Source: an uncultured Pseudomonadales bacterium (lineage in GTDB: Bacteria > Patescibacteriota > Microgenomatia > UBA1400 > MFAQ01). From it: a stretch of 60,648 nt of DNA. The DNA lies in contig CAYGCQ010000005.1 in the NCBI GenBank assembly GCA_964348455.1, positions 1 through 60,648 on the forward strand, in the 5' to 3' direction. The position numbers and the translations under genes are program-made. The notes below the pieces were generated by a model. That model was given only the letters and a program-made list of their open reading frames with translations, did no database searches and was not told the origin of the DNA. Positions 23,593 to 54,624 of this stretch are shown one piece after another. Position 1 is the stretch's first letter, and every line of letters starts with the position of its first letter.

Positions 23593-25641
23593 CTAATCTT
23601 CCTCAGACTCCAATTCAGCTTCAGAATTTTTAGCCTCCTCTGCGGTCTGAGGTTTCTTCCAGCTTGCCCAAGTACAGTTCGGATAATCTTCACAGCCATA
23701 AAAATCCCGGTTGGTCCTTGTCTTCTTCATCACGACTCTTTTCCCGCATTTTTCACAAACCACATCCTCGACATACACAATATATGGGGCCTTGTGGGCA
23801 CAGTCTGGATATCGATTACAGCTAAGGAACTTACCGAACTTACCGTCCCGGATAACCACTTCACCCTCTTTACACAGAGGACACTTCTCTCCAGTACTTT
23901 CTGTTGGAACTCCTACACGAATACTGTCCTTGTCCACTTTAAGAAGTTTTCTCGAAAAGTCGCCCCAGAATTTACTTAGCATTTCCATCCACTTCACTTT
24001 ACCGGAAGCAATACTATCCAAAGAATCTTCCATCTTAGCCGTAAACTCATACTCCATCTCTCTTGGAAAGTTCTCTATCAAGAAATCAACCACAGCATTA
24101 CCTATAGATGTCGAATAAAATCTCTTTTCTTTTTGCTCAACATACCTTCGATCCAAAATTGTCGAGATAATTGCAGCGTAAGTTGAAGGCCTCCCAATCC
24201 CCTTCTTTTCCAGCTCTTTAATCAGTGAAGCATCATTAAATCTAGCCGGTGGTTGAGTAAATTTTTGAAGAGGTTCAACCTTTTTTTTATTTAATTTATC
24301 ACCTACCTTAACCTCAGGTAGCGCCACAGGTTCATCCTTTCCTTTTGCAAACAACTTTTTCCAACCGTCGAACTTCACCACAATGCCATTTGCGCTAAGT
24401 TCACAGTTTCCAGCTTTTACGACCACTTTTGTATCATCAAAAACAGCTTCCGCCATCTGACAGGCTACCGTTCTTCGCCAGATAAGTGAATACAATTTCT
24501 TTTCATCCATTACCATTTCTTGACCCGTAAATTTCTCCGGAGTAACATCAATATTGGTCGGTCGAACAGCTTCATGAGCCTCTTGCGCCACTACTTTACC
24601 TGCCGCCTTGTACATTCTGGGAGCAGCCGGTAAATACTCCTTTCCGTAAGTCTCACCAATAAATTTCCTCACAGACTCAATCGAGGTTGGAGCCAAGTTA
24701 AACGAATCGGTACGGTGATAAGTGATGTTACCCAGCTCGTAAAGCTTCTGAGCAATGTTCATGGTTCTCTTAGCTGACCACCCCAAAACATTTGCGGCTG
24801 CTTGCTGGAGAGTAGAGGTTTTGAATGGTGCATGAGGCTGAGTCTTTCTTGCCTTTTTTATGATATCTTCCACCACATAATCCGATGTTTCAAGAACTTT
24901 CAGTATTTCTTTTGCTTCATCTCCCGAATGAATTTCAGCCTTTTTCGCTTTAAATTTGGCCAATTCGACCCAGAATTCATCACCACTTTCAGGCTTAACC
25001 AAAACTCGAATCTGCCAGTACTCTACCGGAACAAATTTTTCTATTTCTCTTTCTCTTTCGACAATTAATCTAACCGCCACGCTCTGAACGCGACCAGCTG
25101 ACAGACCTCTTCGAACTTTCTTCCACAGAATTGGAGATAGTTTGTAACCTACTAAACGATCAAGGAATCTTCTGGCTTGCTGAGAGTTCACCATGTTCAT
25201 GTCAATCTCTCGGGGGTTGTCCATGGCTTCCAAAATAGCTTCTTTGGTTATCGAGTTATATGACACACGCTTAAAAATTGGCTGCTTTTTCTTCCCTTTC
25301 AGGGCATCCTTCAGAATTTCCTCTACATGCCAAGCTATTGCTTCTCCTTCACGGTCAGGATCTGAAGCCAAGATTATCTCATCTGCTCTTGCAGCTTCCA
25401 CCTTGAGTCTTTTCACAGTGTCCTCTTTGCGATCCATGATTGCATAAGTCGGAATAAATTCAAACTGATCCGTCTTGAGTTCTTGATTTTTTGAGTTCTT
25501 GATTTCTTTGATCTCTATTCCAATCTTGCTCTTTGGCAAGTCACGAACATGACCCATACTCGCCAGGATCTCAAAATCACCTCCCAAATACTTTGAAAGG
25601 CTTTTTGTCTTCGTTGGTGACTCTACTATTACAAGTTTCAC
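23593..25641 (-). CDS. topA: DNA topoisomerase I
   Basis: Toprim N-terminus (MKLVIVESPTKTK.., DPDREGEAI), active-site region ITYHRTDS, C-terminal CxxC zinc ribbons. Confidence 0.95.
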   Translation of the reverse strand: MKLVIVESPTKTKSLSKYLGGDFEILASMGHVRDLPKSKIGIEIKEIKNSKNQELKTDQFEFIPTYAIMDRKEDTVKRLKVEAARADEIILASDPDREGEAIAWHVEEILKDALKGKKKQPIFKRVSYNSITKEAILEAMDNPREIDMNMVNSQQARRFLDRLVGYKLSPILWKKVRRGLSAGRVQSVAVRLIVEREREIEKFVPVEYWQIRVLVKPESGDEFWVELAKFKAKKAEIHSGDEAKEILKVLETSDYVVEDIIKKARKTQPHAPFKTSTLQQAAANVLGWSAKRTMNIAQKLYELGNITYHRTDSFNLAPTSIESVRKFIGETYGKEYLPAAPRMYKAAGKVVAQEAHEAVRPTNIDVTPEKFTGQEMVMDEKKLYSLIWRRTVACQMAEAVFDDTKVVVKAGNCELSANGIVVKFDGWKKLFAKGKDEPVALPEVKVGDKLNKKKVEPLQKFTQPPARFNDASLIKELEKKGIGRPSTYAAIISTILDRRYVEQKEKRFYSTSIGNAVVDFLIENFPREMEYEFTAKMEDSLDSIASGKVKWMEMLSKFWGDFSRKLLKVDKDSIRVGVPTESTGEKCPLCKEGEVVIRDGKFGKFLSCNRYPDCAHKAPYIVYVEDVVCEKCGKRVVMKKTRTNRDFYGCEDYPNCTWASWKKPQTAEEAKNSEAELESEED

Positions 25642-25742
25642 TTTATAAAATATACACGTTCAAACGGCGTAATGCACCAAACAGGTACAAATTTACGAGC
25701 GTCCGACCTGGAATTGTACTACATCCTTATTTAACCAAGAAA

Positions 25743-25911
25743 TGACGTCCTCCCCGCACAGACTCCGCTTCGCTCCGCATTGTACGGGGTTTCCTGACTG
25801 TATTTCATTTCATGCTACCAGCATATCATCGCCTTCGGCGACGACATGCTCTTCCCATTCATCCCCGCACAAGGTTTGAGTACAAACCCTTGTACGGGGT
25901 TTCCTGGGTAC
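25743..25911 (+). repeat. 169-nt structured repeat, family B, copy 2
   Basis: Identical to copy 3 and 2 mismatches from copy 1. Lies between the terminator of ncRNA-1 and the topA upstream region. Confidence 0.9.
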
Positions 25912-26546
25912 AAAAAACCCGCCTCATAGAGACGGGTTCGTATAGTTAAAAACAGCTGGGGCGGAAGACATTTCCAGAGGGTTTATCCTGAAGAGTTAAT
26001 TCTCCAGAACTTTATTTCCCGTAACTGGAGCATATTACCCGTTTGCCCATGAGAATTGGCCTTATGCTGGCCGACCTCCGTATAAGGAGGCGGTCCCTGC
26101 CACGCAGGGTCCTTTCGCTGTTTAATGAATGGCTTCTAGTATTGCAACACCCTCGACTAGAAACCAAACCAATCTACGTAGGATCCGTCGTGTTGCCGAC
26201 ATTCATATGTAGATGCCGCTTTAGCGGTTGAGAAAAAGCATCATCGTTCCCGGCGCGGCGGGCGGCAGGATGATCAGAGCCGACGATCGGGTCGGCCAAA
26301 GCCCATGTATGGGAAACGACTGGCTTTACTAGGATATCTACATCACTCTCCAGCTTCAAAGGCCGTAGTAGCCTCCACCGAAAAGTCCTAGTGGGGATAT
26401 TCTCATACCCCGTCTAACACTAAGTGAGCTCAGCGCCTGGTTAAACGCGGCTGACGGGGGGTTAATGCCCGGTGCTGGCGCTGCTCGAACTAGGTACAAA
26501 CATATACCCACTTCGAGCAGCGAACTCGCAAAATTTAAGGTTCAAT
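25912..26546 (-). ncRNA. large structured RNA 1 (about 635 nt), unassigned family
   Basis: Bounded by a consensus-like promoter (26553-26581) and the terminator aacccgtctc-tat-gaggcgggtt+T6 (25912-25938). G+C-rich with many long helices and no credible ORF. Confidence 0.7.
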
Positions 26547-26552
26547 GGACAT

Positions 26553-26581
26553 ATATTACACCAAAAAATGTTATTTGTCAA
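26553..26581 (-). promoter_or_regulatory. promoter of large RNA 1
   Basis: Minus strand reads TTGACA, 17-nt spacer, TAATAT. Confidence 0.75.
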
Positions 26582-26642
26582 GTATATAGGCCTTCAAGGA
26601 CTGTCCTCGTAGGCAAAAGATAATACAGTCATAAATTGCCTC

Positions 26643-27234
26643 AAAAAAGGAAAAGGCTCGTACATTTTGTACGAGCCTTTAGTAGACTGTGCTCAGGAGA
26701 ATGAGCAAAAAAATGAAAAATATGATAAATCTCATTCTCCTGATTTCAATATCCCCAATCTTGGGGGTAAATAGTAAAAGGCTGGTGAGGCCAGCGCGAC
26801 CCCTTGACAGACAGGATGTCGACCGGGGGTCAAATTAGCGACGGGTACATGTGGCGCAAACATAGTCCACCTCGCCCCGCACTTGCTTATAATTCCCTTT
26901 TACAGGAACCCTGCTTTCGCAGGCCTCACCTCGAGCATTGGCGAAATTCAAAATGATAGGAGGCGCTTCCCGTAGGAGCGGAGCCTGGTTCATTTCTATT
27001 CGCCGGTTTATGCCGATCAGCGCGCGCCGTGGGAGCCATCATGCCCCCCAGCAAAGACCATCCGCGGTCAGGTGCGCCGTCTCCGTATAGGGAGGCGCGG
27101 GTGCGGAGCCTTGTTGCCGATCGCCACAAAATATAAGCCTTAACCTGTATTTTGTGGCGATCGGAAAACTATTTACTATTTTATTCAAAGATCAATCTCG
27201 CCTGTGGTGAGTATCACCGAACCATTCGAGAATA
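26643..27234 (-). ncRNA. large structured RNA 2 (about 590 nt), unassigned family
   Basis: Promoter at 27240-27268 and terminator ggctcgtaca-aaa-tgtacgagcc followed by a T-rich tract (26643-26680). Begins with the 52-nt module shared with RNA 3. Very G+C-rich core. Confidence 0.7.
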
Positions 27235-27239
27235 TGGCC

Positions 27240-27268
27240 ATTCTATCACCACTTTTGACATTTGTCAA
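27240..27268 (-). promoter_or_regulatory. promoter of large RNA 2
   Basis: Minus strand reads TTGACA, 17-nt spacer, TAGAAT. Confidence 0.75.
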
Positions 27269-27303
27269 GTACTATAAGACTATTCACAAGCTCATAAACC
27301 AAG

Positions 27304-27803
27304 AAAAATCCGCCTCAGTTGAGACGGATTTAATTTAAAGAAAATGCCGCTCCGGGATCGTTGCCCGGAGACGGCAGAAATGTGGGAGATGAATTCCATG
27401 CACTTGCGCGAGTGCATGAGCTAATAAAATCATCTCCTCATCAGGTCGGCTTTAGACGCTAGAGCTTAGCATCTTGATCATCGCCTTCCCATATCCGAAC
27501 TCGCCAGCCCGGAGTAATTTCACCTTCACTCTATCATCTAGGAAACAAAGCTCAAAGTGGCTATGCCCGCAGATAGAGACCTATTAGGTGAGCGTGTCAT
27601 GGCGGGATTAACCCGCAACTGAGTTGCGTCGGCTCAGTCAAACTGTTGCCGGAGCCCAAGGCTACCGGCCAAAGAGAGCGGCCACTATGATCTCGGCCGT
27701 TCAGCTTTCCTTCAATTATAAAGAGAAGCTGAACGACCGAGTTACTAATTGATTCAAAGATCAATCTCGCCTGTGGTGAGTATCACCGAACCATTCGAGA
27801 ATA
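27304..27803 (-). ncRNA. large structured RNA 3 (about 500 nt), unassigned family, paralogue of RNA 2 at the 5' end
   Basis: Promoter at 27809-27837 and terminator atccgtctc-aact-gaggcggat+TTTTT (27304-27329). Same 52-nt 5' module as RNA 2. Confidence 0.7.
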
Positions 27804-27808
27804 CGTAT

Positions 27809-27837
27809 ATAATACCCCATAACACAGAATTTGTCAA
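27809..27837 (-). promoter_or_regulatory. promoter of large RNA 3
   Basis: Minus strand reads TTGACA, 17-nt spacer, TATTAT. Confidence 0.75.
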
Positions 27838-27852
27838 GACCTAGTTTTAGCC

Positions 27853-29385
27853 TTACTTCAACAAGTACGGCAATATCTCGCCTGCTACAGGAGCAGCCAC
27901 TGCACTCCCCTGTCCTCCCTGCTCTATAAGCACTGTTATCACAATCCACTCCTTCACATCAGCTCCCTTCGGCACCACCACTGTCATCCAGGCATTGGGT
28001 AAAGTATCCTTTGCTCCAACCTGGGCCGTTCCGGTTTTACAGTATATTTTTCCTGCATACCCAAACAAAGGAAAAGCAGTCCCACCCGGACTACAAGCTC
28101 CAGCCATACCCTCAAGCACGGTCGCAACATTCTTAGGATTAAACTTCTGATCACCACAAGACACACTCCCTACAATCATCGGATCACAGCTTAAACCACT
28201 CACCGCTTCCGAGGTCATTCGATTTATCTGAATAGGAGTAGTCATAAGGTCCCCTTGACCAATTGAAAGATGATACGTATTACCCAAGAACCACCTCTCC
28301 CCCAAGGTCTTCTCTCTCCAGTAAGGTGTCGGCACAAATCCATCTGACTCACCAGGTAAATCAATCCCGGTCTTTTCGCCCAACCCAAATCTTTTTGTCC
28401 AGGATATCAGTGAATCTGCCCCCAAAGCTTCACCAATTTTATAAAAGAAAATATCGTTACTCCTAGACAAAGCACTTACAACATTAACCATTCCCTCTGT
28501 TCTGCTATATTGATCAAAATACCAGTTACCAAAGCGATACTCCCCTATCTTCAACTCTCCCGTATCTTGAATCTCCGTATTTTTATTAATTTTCCCCTCT
28601 TCCAATGCACCCATCGCAGGAACCAACTTATAAACCGACCCCGGCGCAAAATCTCCAGAAATAGCCCGGTTAAAAAGGGGCTTGCCATTTTCATCAATTA
28701 ACAAACTTTCAATATCTTTGTAGTCTCCACCAAAATCACTTCGCTTACCATTAGCGATAAATAAATTTGGGTCAAAGGAAGGTACACTGGCCAATGCCAA
28801 TACTTCACCATTTACTTTCGCAACTACAATAGCTCCACTTTTGCCTTCCTCCAAGTATTTACTTTTAAGTGCCATGTATGCTTCTTTCTGAAGTTCTAAA
28901 TCAATGTTCGTTTTCAAATTTTTACCAGGTACAGACTCCGTCTGAGTAATTATTTTCCTGGTCTTACCATCAGCAGTTTCCTGAACAACAGCTTCGCCCG
29001 GAAAGCCTACTAAATCATTTTGGTAACTCTTTTCTAAGCCCGCTTTCCCAAGTGTCATGATCGGATTACATCGGGAACAATCTTTTAAATCTTTTTCATT
29101 TGGTTTACCCAGATAACCGACTATAGGTGAAATTGTTTCACCACCCGGGTAAAACCGAATCGTCCTACCCAGATAATCGATGTTCATGGCTAAAGGCTTA
29201 CCATATCTATCGGTAATCACGCCACGAATAGGATCTAACTTTTCTTTCCTAATCATGTTGCCCTGAGCCAAATCCCCAAAATGATCCCCCATGACAGTAG
29301 TCAAGAAAAAAACCCTGGAAAAAACCATGGCCATTACGAGGACCAAGATCATCTTCGACCATGTGTACATTTCACCTTTCCTCAT
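27853..29385 (-). CDS. mrdA: penicillin-binding protein 2 (elongation transpeptidase)
   Basis: Transpeptidase motifs SVYK (SxxK), SRSN (SxN) and KTGTA (KTG). mre gene neighbourhood. Confidence 0.85.
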   Translation of the reverse strand: MRKGEMYTWSKMILVLVMAMVFSRVFFLTTVMGDHFGDLAQGNMIRKEKLDPIRGVITDRYGKPLAMNIDYLGRTIRFYPGGETISPIVGYLGKPNEKDLKDCSRCNPIMTLGKAGLEKSYQNDLVGFPGEAVVQETADGKTRKIITQTESVPGKNLKTNIDLELQKEAYMALKSKYLEEGKSGAIVVAKVNGEVLALASVPSFDPNLFIANGKRSDFGGDYKDIESLLIDENGKPLFNRAISGDFAPGSVYKLVPAMGALEEGKINKNTEIQDTGELKIGEYRFGNWYFDQYSRTEGMVNVVSALSRSNDIFFYKIGEALGADSLISWTKRFGLGEKTGIDLPGESDGFVPTPYWREKTLGERWFLGNTYHLSIGQGDLMTTPIQINRMTSEAVSGLSCDPMIVGSVSCGDQKFNPKNVATVLEGMAGACSPGGTAFPLFGYAGKIYCKTGTAQVGAKDTLPNAWMTVVVPKGADVKEWIVITVLIEQGGQGSAVAAPVAGEILPYLLK

Positions 29386-32498: not shown

Positions 32499-32570
32499 GC
32501 GTCCATAGCTCAGTGGCAGAGCACTCGCTTTGTAAGTGAGTTGTCAGGGGTTCGATTCCCTTTGGACGCT
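32499..32570 (+). tRNA. tRNA-Thr (anticodon UGU), CCA not encoded
   Basis: Manual cloverleaf: acceptor GCGTCCA/TGGACGC, D arm GCTC..GAGC, anticodon stem CTCGC/GTGAG with loop TTTGTAA, T arm AGGGG-TTCGATT-CCCTT. Confidence 0.85.
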
Positions 32571-32663
32571 CTCCCCGTTCAGTCAGCGCTGTTGACCCTT
32601 CCTCAAATATCAGGAATGTGGAGACAACTATTGCTTGCTGAACGGGTTTATTTCCAATACATA

Positions 32664-33300: not shown

Positions 33301-35289
33301 ATGCCGAGTGTGGAGCAGACAAATGATTATGAATCGCTAGAAAGAGCGCGAATAACTCAAGAAATAATTGATGATTCTTTTCCTACGACAATAAAAGACA
33401 AAATAATCAAAGAAAAACTAAGCAACACTATAATCGTCAAATCAATTGATGGCATTCTTGATGCAAAAATTGAGCTTACACCCAAAAACTTTCTGGGCAA
33501 AGGCCTATCAGGACTAGTGATGATTGGGAAAACAGAAAAGGGTCCAACTGCCTTCAAAATGTTTACTTCAAAAGATTCGGTCAGCAATGACTCCACGCAA
33601 ACAGAATACGACTCGGAAGTGGATATATTAAAAGGATTGGACCATCCAAACCTCGCATCCTTCTACGGAACAGCAGACGTTGAACTTACAAAAAGCTCTG
33701 TAATCAAAGTGATAGCAAGGGAATTAATTCCCATAGAATTTCGACGACTAAAGCTCAATGAAGCAGTCCAGATGTCCGAAGAAATTGCCAGTGTTCTTGA
33801 TTACATTAACGAGAAAAAAGGTGCAATTCTACCAGACTTAACTCCGGAAGGTATTCGTCAGAGAACTAACGGCTCCTGGGTCCTACTAGATGTCGGTCAT
33901 TCGGCAAAACCAAGTGAAGATCAGTCAAGAATAATTCAAATTGACGATATATATACCGCCCCTGAAGTTAAATTTGCAAAAGACGAAGATAGAAACAAGG
34001 CTGCCACTCCAGCCTCCGAGGTATTTAGCCTGGCACTGATTGTCTGGAAAGGCTTATCTGGGTCAGACTATGACCGTATTAACCCGGAGCAGATCTTTGA
34101 TGAAAAAATAGGTGAGTTCTCTCCACTTATTATCGATGTTCTCAAAAAAGCAACTTCTCGTGAGCCAGGCGATAGATATCAAACACCAACTGAATTTGCC
34201 GAAGCCCTAAGAAATGCAACAGCTGAACTAACAGCACCAGAACAGAAAGCAGAAGATCCCATTAGAGATCCTCGAGAATCTGGCGAATCTATCATCAGCC
34301 CAAAACTTAAAGATTTCTCCGGGAAATCTGTAGAAGAAGTTAGGAAGAGGGTAAAAAATATTTTGCCATATGTTATAGATATGACAGTTTTCCATGACCT
34401 CTCACCAACAGATGAAAGGAAAGGGCTAATCCCAACAGGCTCCATTGCTGAAATAGACACACTAGAACACAAGGATTGGTTGAAATTGCTAGGAGGCTCA
34501 GACATGGGATGTGGTATAGAGTTTGCAGCTCTCGAATCAACTATCAACATCGAAGATGCTCAAAATAAGTTAGATCAAATTAGCGACAAAGTCTCCAGTG
34601 GAGAACTGTCTCTTGGTGGAGGAAATCATTTTATCGATATCATGGAAGATTCCAACGGCAAATACTACGTCGCCATCCATACCGGTGCCCCTCGAGATGA
34701 ACAAGAAGAACTCAACCAAATCGTCGAACAAGCAAAGGAAGATGGGAATTGGGAAGAAGCTACAATAAAATACTTAGCAAAATATGATGAAATTATTAAG
34801 TCAGCAAATGATAACAGAGAAAAAATTCTCGCCGCAATTACTGAGGTTTATGGCAAATGTGACACGCTGTACCATGAACCACACAACACTATAGATATAA
34901 ATAAAGAAAAAAATACAGTCACTATTTATAAAGGAGCTGTCCACGTTACAGACACCAGAAAAAAACAGTTCATGCCAAGTTCCATGAACGAAGGTGCAGT
35001 CTTTTTTATACCTGGCCCAACCGTAGGCGAAAAAACACATTTTGGGGTTCCCCATGGCACAGGCAAGGCTCGATCAACCGGCGAACAAAGAGCGGATCCA
35101 AACCTTGATATTCATCCAAATATTATGCTTCCCACTTCAGCTGGTGGGGTAGTTTCAAGAGGTGTAGCTGAAGGTGCTTACAACACTTATGCCAAAGCCG
35201 AAGAAATCATGCTGAACTGTGGTATTGCAAGATATGAATCTGAAGAAGATATAGAAATATTCAAAACTGTTGCTCACATTAGAAGGTAA
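33301..35289 (+). CDS. fusion protein: N-terminal protein kinase-like domain plus C-terminal RtcB-like RNA ligase domain
   Basis: Kinase-like: GKGLSGLV (G-loop), AFKMF (Lys), ILPDLTPEGI (HRDLKPEN-like, Asp kept), LLDVGHS (DFG-like), TAPE. RtcB-like: GSDMGCGIEF, GGGNHFIDI, AIHTGAPRD, HNTI and VPHGTGKAR (HGAGR-like). Confidence 0.7.
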   Translation: MPSVEQTNDYESLERARITQEIIDDSFPTTIKDKIIKEKLSNTIIVKSIDGILDAKIELTPKNFLGKGLSGLVMIGKTEKGPTAFKMFTSKDSVSNDSTQTEYDSEVDILKGLDHPNLASFYGTADVELTKSSVIKVIARELIPIEFRRLKLNEAVQMSEEIASVLDYINEKKGAILPDLTPEGIRQRTNGSWVLLDVGHSAKPSEDQSRIIQIDDIYTAPEVKFAKDEDRNKAATPASEVFSLALIVWKGLSGSDYDRINPEQIFDEKIGEFSPLIIDVLKKATSREPGDRYQTPTEFAEALRNATAELTAPEQKAEDPIRDPRESGESIISPKLKDFSGKSVEEVRKRVKNILPYVIDMTVFHDLSPTDERKGLIPTGSIAEIDTLEHKDWLKLLGGSDMGCGIEFAALESTINIEDAQNKLDQISDKVSSGELSLGGGNHFIDIMEDSNGKYYVAIHTGAPRDEQEELNQIVEQAKEDGNWEEATIKYLAKYDEIIKSANDNREKILAAITEVYGKCDTLYHEPHNTIDINKEKNTVTIYKGAVHVTDTRKKQFMPSSMNEGAVFFIPGPTVGEKTHFGVPHGTGKARSTGEQRADPNLDIHPNIMLPTSAGGVVSRGVAEGAYNTYAKAEEIMLNCGIARYESEEDIEIFKTVAHIRR

Positions 35290-50810: not shown

Positions 50811-50883
50811 GCCGTCATAGCTCAGCTGGCAGAGCGCGTTCTTGGTAAGAACGAGGTGTTGGGTTCGACTCCCAATGACGGCT
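50811..50883 (+). tRNA. tRNA-Thr (anticodon GGU), CCA not encoded
   Basis: Acceptor GCCGTCA/TGACGGC, anticodon stem CGTTC/GAACG with loop TTGGTAA, T arm TTGGG-TTCGACT-CCCAA. Confidence 0.9.
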
Positions 50884-51027
50884 CATTAGGCAGTCCAGTT
50901 CCCTTGTGGAACGGGACCGACTAATCAGTAACATTGAGGTCGAATGCCACAGGCGCGACTGGCGCCGAGGCGCGGTCAGAGGCAACTCAGCAGAGTTGAC
51001 CGAAGACCGACCCCCAATGACGGCTCA
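50884..51027 (+). other. G+C-rich structured insert ending in a second copy of the tRNA-Thr 3' end
   Basis: 19-nt direct repeat gac(t/c)cccaatgacggctca at 50867-50885 and 51009-51027. The intervening 123 nt contains hairpins gttcc-cttgt-ggaac, ggcgc-gactg-gcgcc and caactc-agca-gagttg. Confidence 0.6.
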
Positions 51028-51047
51028 CTGATACAATTAATCAAAAT

Positions 51048-51130
51048 GCCGAGGTGGTAGAGTGGTCAAATACTCGGGTCTGTAAAACCCGCGGCGCAAG
51101 CCTACACAGGTTCGAACCCTGTCCTCGGCA
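51048..51130 (+). tRNA. tRNA-Tyr (anticodon GUA) with long variable arm, CCA not encoded
   Basis: Acceptor GCCGAGG/CCTCGGC, anticodon stem CGGGT/ACCCG with loop CTGTAAA, long variable arm, T arm ACAGG-TTCGAAC-CCTGT. Confidence 0.9.
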
Positions 51131-51138
51131 CTAAATAA

Positions 51139-54548: not shown

Positions 54549-54624
54549 TGGAGCCGGGAGCGGGAATCGAACCCACGACATCATGTTTACAAAACATGCG
54601 CTCTACCAACTGAGCTATCCCGGC
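54549..54624 (-). tRNA. tRNA-Thr (anticodon UGU), CCA encoded
   Basis: Reverse complement GCCGGGATAGCTCAGTTGGTAGAGCGCATGTTTTGTAAACATGATGTCGTGGGTTCGATTCCCGCTCCCGGCTCCA folds as a cloverleaf. It is the only tRNA here with a genomic CCA. Confidence 0.85.

Follow-up and report, generated by a model that had tools for sequence, protein, structure and literature searches.

In a 60,648-nt stretch of contig CAYGCQ010000005.1 (hereafter the window), the gap between mrdA and topA contains three promoter-to-terminator units, A, B and C (25908–27837, minus strand), which appear to specify large structured RNAs. The gene for PBP2, mrdA (27853–29385), flanks the unit A side and topA (23593–25641) the unit C side, both on the minus strand. 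Beyond mrdA lie mreC and mreB; beyond topA lie a 173-aa open reading frame (ORF) without a Pfam domain, Nramp and tmk. The locus had been singled out in an earlier reading made from the nucleotide letters alone (the sequence-only reading), and here we analyzed its signals, relatives, structure and possible role.

Three promoter-to-terminator units between mrdA and topA

Each unit begins with a near-consensus sigma-70-type promoter. A promoter scan located TTGACA-17-TATTAT at 27809–27837 for unit A, TTGACA-17-TAGAAT with TG upstream at 27240–27268 for unit B, and TTGACA-17-TAATAT at 26553–26581 for unit C, with scores of 11, 11 and 10 out of 12, respectively; all three rank among the best of this type in the region. 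Where 1.95 exact matches to TTGACA-N16-18-TANNNT would be expected, the window has 10; three of them are the unit promoters, and another stands 19 nt upstream of the tRNA-Thr(UGU) gene at 32499–32571 (plus strand), indicating that this promoter type serves stable RNA in the organism. Each unit ends in a hairpin followed by a U-tract, at 27331–27306, 26680–26652 and 25938–25910. The terminators of units A and B came from a tool scan, and that of unit C from a separate scan together with reading of the sequence.

The longest ORF on either strand of 25642–27852 measures 67 aa and has a TTG start. G+C content is 0.46–0.58 in the units, with dips to 0.38–0.42 at their AU-rich boundaries, compared with 0.38–0.44 in most of the flanking coding sequence. 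Against dinucleotide shuffles, unit A (504 nt) has a minimum free energy (MFE) z-score of −6.6, unit B (592 nt) one of −8.7 and unit C (640 nt) one of −5.2. In none of the three did a shuffle match the native folding energy, and the minus (sense) strand out-folds the plus strand in all three. The predicted structures are multi-branched, with roughly 165–205 base pairs per RNA. Tandem Repeats Finder reported no short-period repeats in the region except a 9-nt A/T-rich triplet.

These results agree with the sequence-only reading, which had described three minus-strand promoters between topA and mrdA, a hairpin and U-tract terminator for each unit, the lack of a credible ORF on either strand, a G+C content above the surroundings and transcripts packed with helices. 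It had missed three features: units A and B have a common 62-nt 5′ leader (97% identity), the T-tract of the unit C terminator overlaps the start of a 178-nt repeat, and the three-unit arrangement is only one form of the cluster, which ranges from one to five units across relatives.

The cluster varies within a subclade of Collierbacteria

Related loci, labelled L001 and so on, were found through PBP2 protein similarity, and these PBP2 relatives place the window in Candidatus Collierbacteria, members of the Patescibacteria (also called the candidate phyla radiation, CPR). Adjacency of mrdA and topA persists to about 38–40% PBP2 identity, and the gap in distant relatives is short (270–480 nt) or contains protein genes. 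Non-coding units fill it in a subclade whose PBP2 is at least 57% identical, comprising about a dozen relatives at 57–87%. Units lie in the same gap in L001–L004, L045/46, L050, L060, L008, L019, L080, L081 and L088. Their number varies from two in L001 and three in L004, L046 and L060 to five in L088, while L003 has one full unit and one short one, and a single mini-unit is present in L006, L007 and L056 (230 nt in L007 and L056).

Every unit in every relative has its own TTGACA-17-TAnnnT promoter and its own hairpin and U-tract terminator. Two promoter classes are kept across species, spacers included: GTGTTATGGGGTATwAT at positions 1 and 3, and GAAAGTGGTGATAnAnT at position 2. The class-1 spacer of unit A, GTGTTATGGGGTATTAT, is common to the first unit of L001, L080, L004, L060 and L007, and unit B carries the class-2 spacer AAAGTGGTGATAGAAT. 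We delimit the family by a consensus promoter, a 5′ end near UAUUCUCGAA (U1 and U2, the first two positions) or GAACUUUGA (U3, the third), a boxA-like motif, a hairpin of ~22 bp, a terminator and a location between mrdA and topA; all three window units have every one of these features. The family has been seen so far only in one Collierbacteria subclade, always in the mrdA–topA gap. Between species, unit number ranges from 1 to 5 and unit size from 150 to 700 nt, and domains are gained and lost. This variability points to an accessory, fast-adapting role and not to a core one.

Several records of this gap are irregular. The contigs of L005, L048, L049, L052, L082 and L083 end 60–270 nt past mrdA, at the start of the cluster, and near-identical leaders and promoters inside the cluster may break assemblies. 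The gaps of L086/L087 (6516–8032) and L088 (6573–10885) hold Pfam-less, mutually inconsistent gene calls, such that two identical loci carry different annotations, a plus-strand ORF of 110 aa in one record and a minus-strand ORF of 172 aa in the other. The proteins called there are probably spurious database entries, because the DNA is laid out as promoter-to-terminator RNA units. In L019 (1455–1850), the promoter of the first unit is followed by AGAGGAGCC-N5-AUG and an ORF of ~99 aa; the gap can therefore host a small protein gene too.

Shared blueprint and anatomy of the units

Folds predicted for the 5′-most 150 nt of about 30 units revealed a common order of 5′ stem-loop, AU-rich stretch, long hairpin and GC-rich body; 3′ hairpins and then the terminator complete the blueprint. 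The long hairpin, P2, is near-perfect; in 22 of 28 units it measures 18–25 bp, and its median length is near 22 bp. When the leaders of 30 units were searched for motifs without supervision, the result was GWWCUUUNAAU, which as a regular expression has 13 matches in 2.2 kb of leaders and none in 14 kb of bodies (0.17 in shuffled leaders). Within the window, it lies within 75 nt after all three unit promoters and after none of the seven other consensus promoters. In sequence and position, this motif resembles boxA, the binding site of NusB/NusE. The boxA consensus is GYTCTTTAANA (PMC5725501), which is fitted by GTTCTTTAAAA, a published boxA upstream of a Legionella CRISPR array (PMC7862264). 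Under the leader matrix, this published element falls within the top 0.007% of window 11-mers, and the E. coli rrn core within the top 0.2%.

Unit A (27298–27837, U1 position), on the minus strand like all features described in this section, consists of its promoter, a structured RNA of ~505 nt and its terminator. Spacing to the −10 element places the putative transcription start near 27802. In predicted folds, the RNA opens with a 5′ hairpin (27765–27800) in which UCUCG...CGAGA surrounds GGUGA-UAC-UCACC, and which occupies the place of boxB in an rrn leader. Its stem is capped by GAAA in L001, L080 and L081 (UCUC-GAAA-GAGA), relative to which the stem-loop of window units A and B is enlarged by an inserted hairpin; the 5′ hairpin of L008 is a covarying version of the same stem. 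The boxA-like element follows at 27752–27762 (GAUCUUUGAAU), recovered by the de novo leader motif, the regular expression and the matrix score, and at 14.4 bits it ranks within the top 3 of the 121k 11-mers in the window. P2 is a 22-bp hairpin at 27692–27741 (inverted repeat I2 and P2 measurement). The 3′ end (27298–27376) contains a GC hairpin with a U-run (27376–27345), then the terminator with its U-tract.

Unit B (26643–27268) specifies a structured RNA of ~592 nt whose MFE structure is close to the centroid. Its 5′ leader (27173–27234), detected as direct repeat D1 and by BLAST, is the near-copy of the unit A leader at 27742–27803, and its boxA-like element, again GAUCUUUGAAU, lies at 27183–27193 and was found by the same three means. 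The leader strand GUAAAUAGU (27168–27176) pairs with the trailer strand ACUAUUUAC (26767–26775) in a closing helix, P1, present in the MFE and centroid folds and as inverted repeat I4; its duplex energy of −13.0 kcal/mol was equalled or bettered by 4% of shuffles. A homologous helix is found in five relatives as AAUAURCAUU/AAUGYAUAUU, with G-C to A-U covariation. The sequence directly after boxA in unit B and in orthologous units thus pairs with that directly preceding the 3′ hairpins, in a helix that encloses the whole body. P2 has 21 bp in this unit (27114–27167; inverted repeat I1, 20 nt at 95%).

The conserved 3′ module of unit B (26641–26773) comprises a CCCCC/GGGG hairpin (26767–26753), a long hairpin (26742–26694) and the terminator with its U-tract. 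The 12-bp long hairpin reads CAGGAGAAUGAG/CUCAUUCUCCUG in the window and GACUCCGUGAGA/UCUCACGGAGUC in relatives, so that both strands have been rewritten. Covariance model R1, built from five relatives with the window excluded, finds 26773–26641 at 53.4 bits (E 1.6e-9). This match, with its rewritten hairpin, identifies unit B as the orthologue of the relatives' second unit (U2), and together with alignment A1 it links unit B to units of L002, L003, L004, L050 and L060. R1 also has weak matches of 30–34 bits at L050:6545–6658, L002:7545–7656, L004:7533–7660, L080:5323–5428 and L081:2028–2105. These sites are the mrdA 3′ untranslated region (UTR) or terminator, or the 3′ ends of first units, and have in common the order AUAUUAC, long hairpin, terminator; they may represent a reused 3′ module or merely generic hairpin-terminator similarity. 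Between the unit B terminator and the −35 element of unit C lies a small hairpin-forming spacer element, CCUACGAGGACAGUCCUUGAAGG (26591–26613). Related sequence occupies the equivalent place in L004, L060 and L002, and the element could bind a regulator or form a second structure at the 3′ side.

Unit C (25910–26581, U3 position) specifies a structured RNA of ~637 nt. Its boxA-like element, GAACCUUAAAU at 26533–26543, was found by the de novo motif and the regular expression and scores 12.0 bits, within the top 6 window 11-mers. P2 spans 18 bp at 26479–26522 (inverted repeat I3 and P2 measurement). An internal domain (26122–26256) is also present in the third unit of L004/L045/L046, with 67% BLAST identity over 136 nt and hairpins altered on both strands. 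The terminator (25910–25938), AACCCGUCUCUAUGAGGCGGGUU plus U-tract (DNA AACCCGTCTCTATGAGGCGGGTT plus T-run), is orthologous in sequence to the U3 terminators of L003, L004, L050 and L060.

Unit bodies appear constrained mainly in structure

Four-fold degenerate sites of PBP2 are only 27–42% identical between these genomes, that is, saturated, even at 86% protein identity. This synonymous saturation explains why the window units share only the promoter and first 45–60 nt with those of the nearest relatives of the window, L001, L080 and L081. Orthologous units reach 70–80% identity × coverage, and shuffled controls 32–44%. For L060 and L050, a closer pair, identity is 75% at four-fold sites, 85% in U2 and 96% in U3.

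Covariation was tested in a U2 alignment of five species, with partners slid by 1–3 columns and 500 column shuffles as controls. The consensus fold contains 149 pairs, in which 86% of cells are paired versus 35–49% in the slid controls, and 48 pairs have changed on both sides versus 11–20; none of the 500 shuffles reached the observed values. An alignment of first units yielded 29 compensatory pairs among 84. The sequence-only reading had named homologues and covariation as its own test, and both were found, as units in the same gap of relatives and as compensatory changes in U2. Constraint on the unit bodies acts mainly on structure.

Short ORFs of 41–67 aa are present, among them a 43-aa ATG ORF (26863–26732) with GAGGUGG upstream, and the units might on that account encode small proteins. 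However, a coding signal was absent from the units: orthologues share no frame, their indels do not come in multiples of three (lengths modulo 3, 58/77/67), and tblastx fragments are short and occur in all frames. The 43-aa ORF crosses the CCCCC hairpin and the conserved P1 helix, where orthologous units differ by 1–2-nt indels. We regard a coding function as extremely improbable.

The units might also be selfish or decaying material, such as hairpin elements resembling miniature inverted-repeat transposable elements (MITEs) or repetitive extragenic palindromes (REPs), or gene remnants in a recombination hotspot. Such an origin would fit the differences in unit number, size and content between species, the coming and going of domains, the several assemblies that stop just past mrdA, and a genuine repeat that adjoins unit C. 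The T-tract of the unit C terminator doubles as the first bases of this separate 178-nt element. Dispersed copies, which mark MITE/REP elements, exist for this neighbouring element, but each unit body is single-copy across the window and the flanks of related loci. The units also change more slowly than synonymous sites, their helices are held by compensatory changes, and conservation extends to their promoters, leaders and terminators. A blastx comparison with the proteins that distant relatives encode in this gap gave no similarity and no trace of a decayed gene. A selfish or decaying origin is therefore, in our judgement, quite unlikely.

The 178-nt element itself occurs in three almost identical minus-strand copies in the window (~25917–25740, ~6155–5978 and ~46171–45994), one of which stands between unit C and topA. 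Each copy starts inside an intrinsic terminator's U-tract (TTTTTTGTACC|CAGGAAACCCCGTACAAGGG...) and finishes with ...GGAGGACGTCATTT. It contains two hairpins with the identical stem CCCCGUACA/UGUGCGGGG, 110 nt apart, and has a fold z-score of −6.7. An 81%-similar piece lies directly after the mrdA terminator in L050. The element had no match in Rfam or in a scan of viral contigs, and it looks like a small mobile element targeting terminators.

At the level of sequence, we consider the signals, conservation, covariation and non-coding nature of the units to be established.

Searches against known RNA families

Rfam 15 at the gathering score returned only four tRNAs in the whole window, and relaxing the threshold to E ≤ 10 over 25600–28000 produced only sub-threshold matches, located at terminator hairpins or directed to miRNA and snoRNA models. 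Eleven related loci searched at the gathering score likewise gave tRNAs only, and a permissive search (E ≤ 1) of the L088 and L004 gaps gave no consistent match. RNase P RNA of type A or B was matched neither in 25600–28000 at E ≤ 10 nor in the 11 relatives, and the permissive search of the two gaps did not find it either. For transfer-messenger RNA (tmRNA), ARAGORN returned only the four tRNAs in the window and Rfam gave no match; covariance models of signal recognition particle (SRP) RNA and 6S RNA had none at E ≤ 10. OLE, ROOL, GOLLD, raiA and HEARO were unmatched at E ≤ 10 in the window and at the gathering score in relatives. Group I and II introns and small ribozymes gave no covariance-model match, and no reverse transcriptase (RT) or maturase gene lies nearby. 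A CRISPR- or TIGR-type array is absent, as no regular repeat was found and one match to a CRISPR direct repeat appears to be chance (19 bits versus a threshold of 39). Neither cas nor any other partner-protein gene was found nearby, the neighbours being mreBC, mrdA, topA and Nramp.

No Rfam family thus explains the units in the window or in relatives, in agreement with the sequence-only reading, which by eye had found no hallmark of RNase P, tmRNA, SRP or group II RNAs and no adjacent RT, Cas or partner gene. Its comparison with OLE, ROOL and GOLLD survives as a matter of size class but not as one of family membership. Searches with blastn against phage and plasmid collections gave no match. 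In viral contigs, 21 sites matched the promoter and 5′-end pattern; none extended past the promoter, and we rejected them as chance. We found no description of these RNAs in the searchable literature on structured RNAs of CPR, Collierbacteria or Microgenomates. Orphan large structured bacterial RNAs are already known; new here are the family, its variable tandem paralogue cluster and its boxA-type leaders.

Strong promoters of the stable-RNA type might nonetheless belong to a highly divergent RNase P RNA, tmRNA, SRP RNA or 6S RNA that Rfam fails to recognise, since CPR sequences are often divergent. Besides the negative searches, the sizes are too large for these RNAs and the copy number ranges from 1 to 5. 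Moreover, the bodies cannot be aligned between genomes with 86% identical PBP2, unlike universally conserved RNAs. A hidden housekeeping RNA is accordingly very unlikely.

Reading the units as independent RNA genes

The units and topA share one strand and are separated by short spacers, the promoter-like site of topA itself is weak (9/12), and mrdA–topA synteny is kept across the clade. Antitermination complexes, moreover, can override terminators (PMC10250234). The units might thus be segments of one long precursor or UTR that reads through boxA-overridden terminators into topA, serving as processing, stability or supercoiling leaders of topA, in a fashion similar to an rRNA operon with multiple promoters. 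This arrangement is hard to square with the near-consensus promoter and strong terminator that every unit has in all relatives, or with relatives that retain topA without a cluster in a gap of 270–480 nt; in both the window and L001, a conserved TACAAT closely precedes topA. Furthermore, rrn-type antitermination complexes counter mainly Rho and not intrinsic terminators. We consider read-through into topA unlikely, although not negligibly so.

The best-conserved part of the RNAs is the 5′ ~10 nt, common to U1 and U2 in several species, and 5′ seeds are common among bacterial small RNAs (sRNAs). The units might accordingly be trans base-pairing regulators or sponges, in which the single-stranded 5′ end UAUUCUCGAA or loops bind mRNAs or titrate an RNA-binding protein. 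With 500–700 nt and roughly 165–205 predicted pairs, however, they far exceed known sRNAs, their conserved 5′ end lies within a stem-loop, and comparison with the remainder of the window detected no notable complementarity. We judge such a role unlikely. A CsrA-type sponge was considered separately and is unlikely because GGA motifs are neither enriched nor loop-exposed.

We favour, as the probable explanation, three independent genes for stable, structured non-coding RNAs of a new lineage-specific family, probably transcribed with Nus assistance and acting in trans. We do not think that the RNAs are antisense regulators or cis leaders. The rRNA operon offers a precedent for the layout: boxB, boxA and boxC follow the promoter, a leader–trailer helix brackets the rRNA, and Nus factors bound to boxA are proposed to tether the leader to the polymerase until the trailer has been made and so to assist formation of that helix (PMC10250234, PMC4807359). 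The units resemble rRNA precursors in layout and motif only; their bodies are not rRNA.

Under the favoured reading of independent genes, the near-consensus sigma-70 promoter would drive strong constitutive transcription of an RNA whose short 5′ stem-loop would protect its 5′ end. The boxA-like element (GAUCUUUGAAU in A and B, GAACCUUAAAU in C) would, as happens in some CRISPR arrays and in rRNA operons, recruit NusB/NusE and other Nus factors, which could make the polymerase processive on a long untranslated RNA without premature termination and keep the leader near it while the body folds. The ~22-bp P2 hairpin would suit a double-strand-specific protein such as RNase III and might be trimmed. 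In unit B and its orthologues, the leader–trailer helix would close the GC-rich multi-helix body, and the 3′ hairpins and intrinsic terminator would end the transcript and shield its 3′ end. The mature RNAs might then serve as folded, trans-acting scaffolds, made of RNA only or of ribonucleoprotein (RNP), which is our best, though weak, guess by analogy with other orphan large RNAs (PMC12286853).

Several observations weigh against this reading or narrow it. The body of unit A has no alignable orthologue among related loci and only one domain of unit C can be aligned with relatives; the structures of these two units are consequently thermodynamic predictions in the main. The wide variation in unit number and size argues against a single essential function. 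The discrete, abundant transcripts that we infer are read from their signals. The boxA-like assignment rests on resemblance and position: the regular expression was derived from the leaders on which it was tested, about a third of the leaders fit the motif weakly, and AU-rich leaders favour boxA-like motifs in any case. No rRNA gene, from which the host's own boxA could be read for comparison, was present in any related locus. The leader–trailer duplex is not above chance versus shuffles in units A and C, and the helix is supported for unit B and its orthologues only. No link to a partner protein or target was found. In a partial run of duplexfold on full-length units, inter-unit RNA–RNA pairing energies were indistinguishable from those of shuffles and uninformative.

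A more far-reaching version treats the units as an rRNA-like class, in which a Nus-modified polymerase, a leader–trailer helix and RNase III trimming would lead to assembly, of each RNA singly or of several together, into a large RNA-only or RNP particle with a lineage-specific role, perhaps in catalysis or in some interaction with the host. We offer this version as a speculative one that is more probably wrong than right by a wide measure.

Other features of the window

Elsewhere in the window, a 662-aa protein (33301–35289, plus strand) has an N-terminal protein kinase domain and, at its C-terminus, a sub-threshold match to RtcB RNA ligase (E 5e-5, 23 bits versus a cut-off of 27); the combination, if real, would be unusual. 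Besides the tRNA-Thr(UGU) gene with the consensus promoter, a second one lies at 54549–54624 (minus strand), within 22 kb of the first, and tRNA-Thr(GGU) and tRNA-Tyr are located at 50811–51131.

Discussion

Large, intricate bacterial RNAs without an assigned role are rare, and OLE, ROOL, GOLLD and raiA have brought unexpected biology, including protein-free RNA nanocages. CPR/Patescibacteria form a huge, barely characterised branch of life with tiny genomes, in which ~2 kb of non-coding RNA is costly. If Nus factors act on these leaders, a new group of cellular RNAs would come within reach of the ribosomal machinery for antitermination and chaperoning. In practical terms, gene callers put spurious ORFs at this locus and assemblies tend to break there. 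The narrow range of the family, one subclade of Collierbacteria, tempers the weight of the finding.

Among known systems, rRNA precursors offer the closest parallel in layout, with a strong stable-RNA promoter, a 5′ hairpin, a boxA-like element near the published consensus, a leader–trailer helix of the unit B type (PMC10250234) and a ~22-bp duplex suited to RNase III. Unlike them, the units show no sequence or covariance similarity to 5S, 16S or 23S rRNA, have fast-evolving bodies of 0.4–0.6 kb and an intrinsic terminator each, and form their long duplex as a local hairpin and not as a leader–trailer helix. A different likeness is to boxA-led CRISPR arrays, whose long untranslated transcripts also have a boxA-type element in the leader. 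There, boxA in some CRISPR-array leaders raises full-length expression (PMC7862264, citing Stringer et al.). The units differ in having no repeats or spacers and no cas genes, and their product would be a folded RNA.

With ROOL, GOLLD, OLE and raiA, the units share the 500–800 nt size class, dense conserved structure and a G+C content above that of the genome, and like ROOL and GOLLD they have no obligatory protein gene adjacent. ROOL, GOLLD and OLE fold into protein-free multimers (PMC12286853). The units are set apart from these four families by the lack of an Rfam match, another host phylum and much lower sequence conservation, and by their arrangement as one to five tandem paralogues at a single syntenic site, each with a boxA-type leader.

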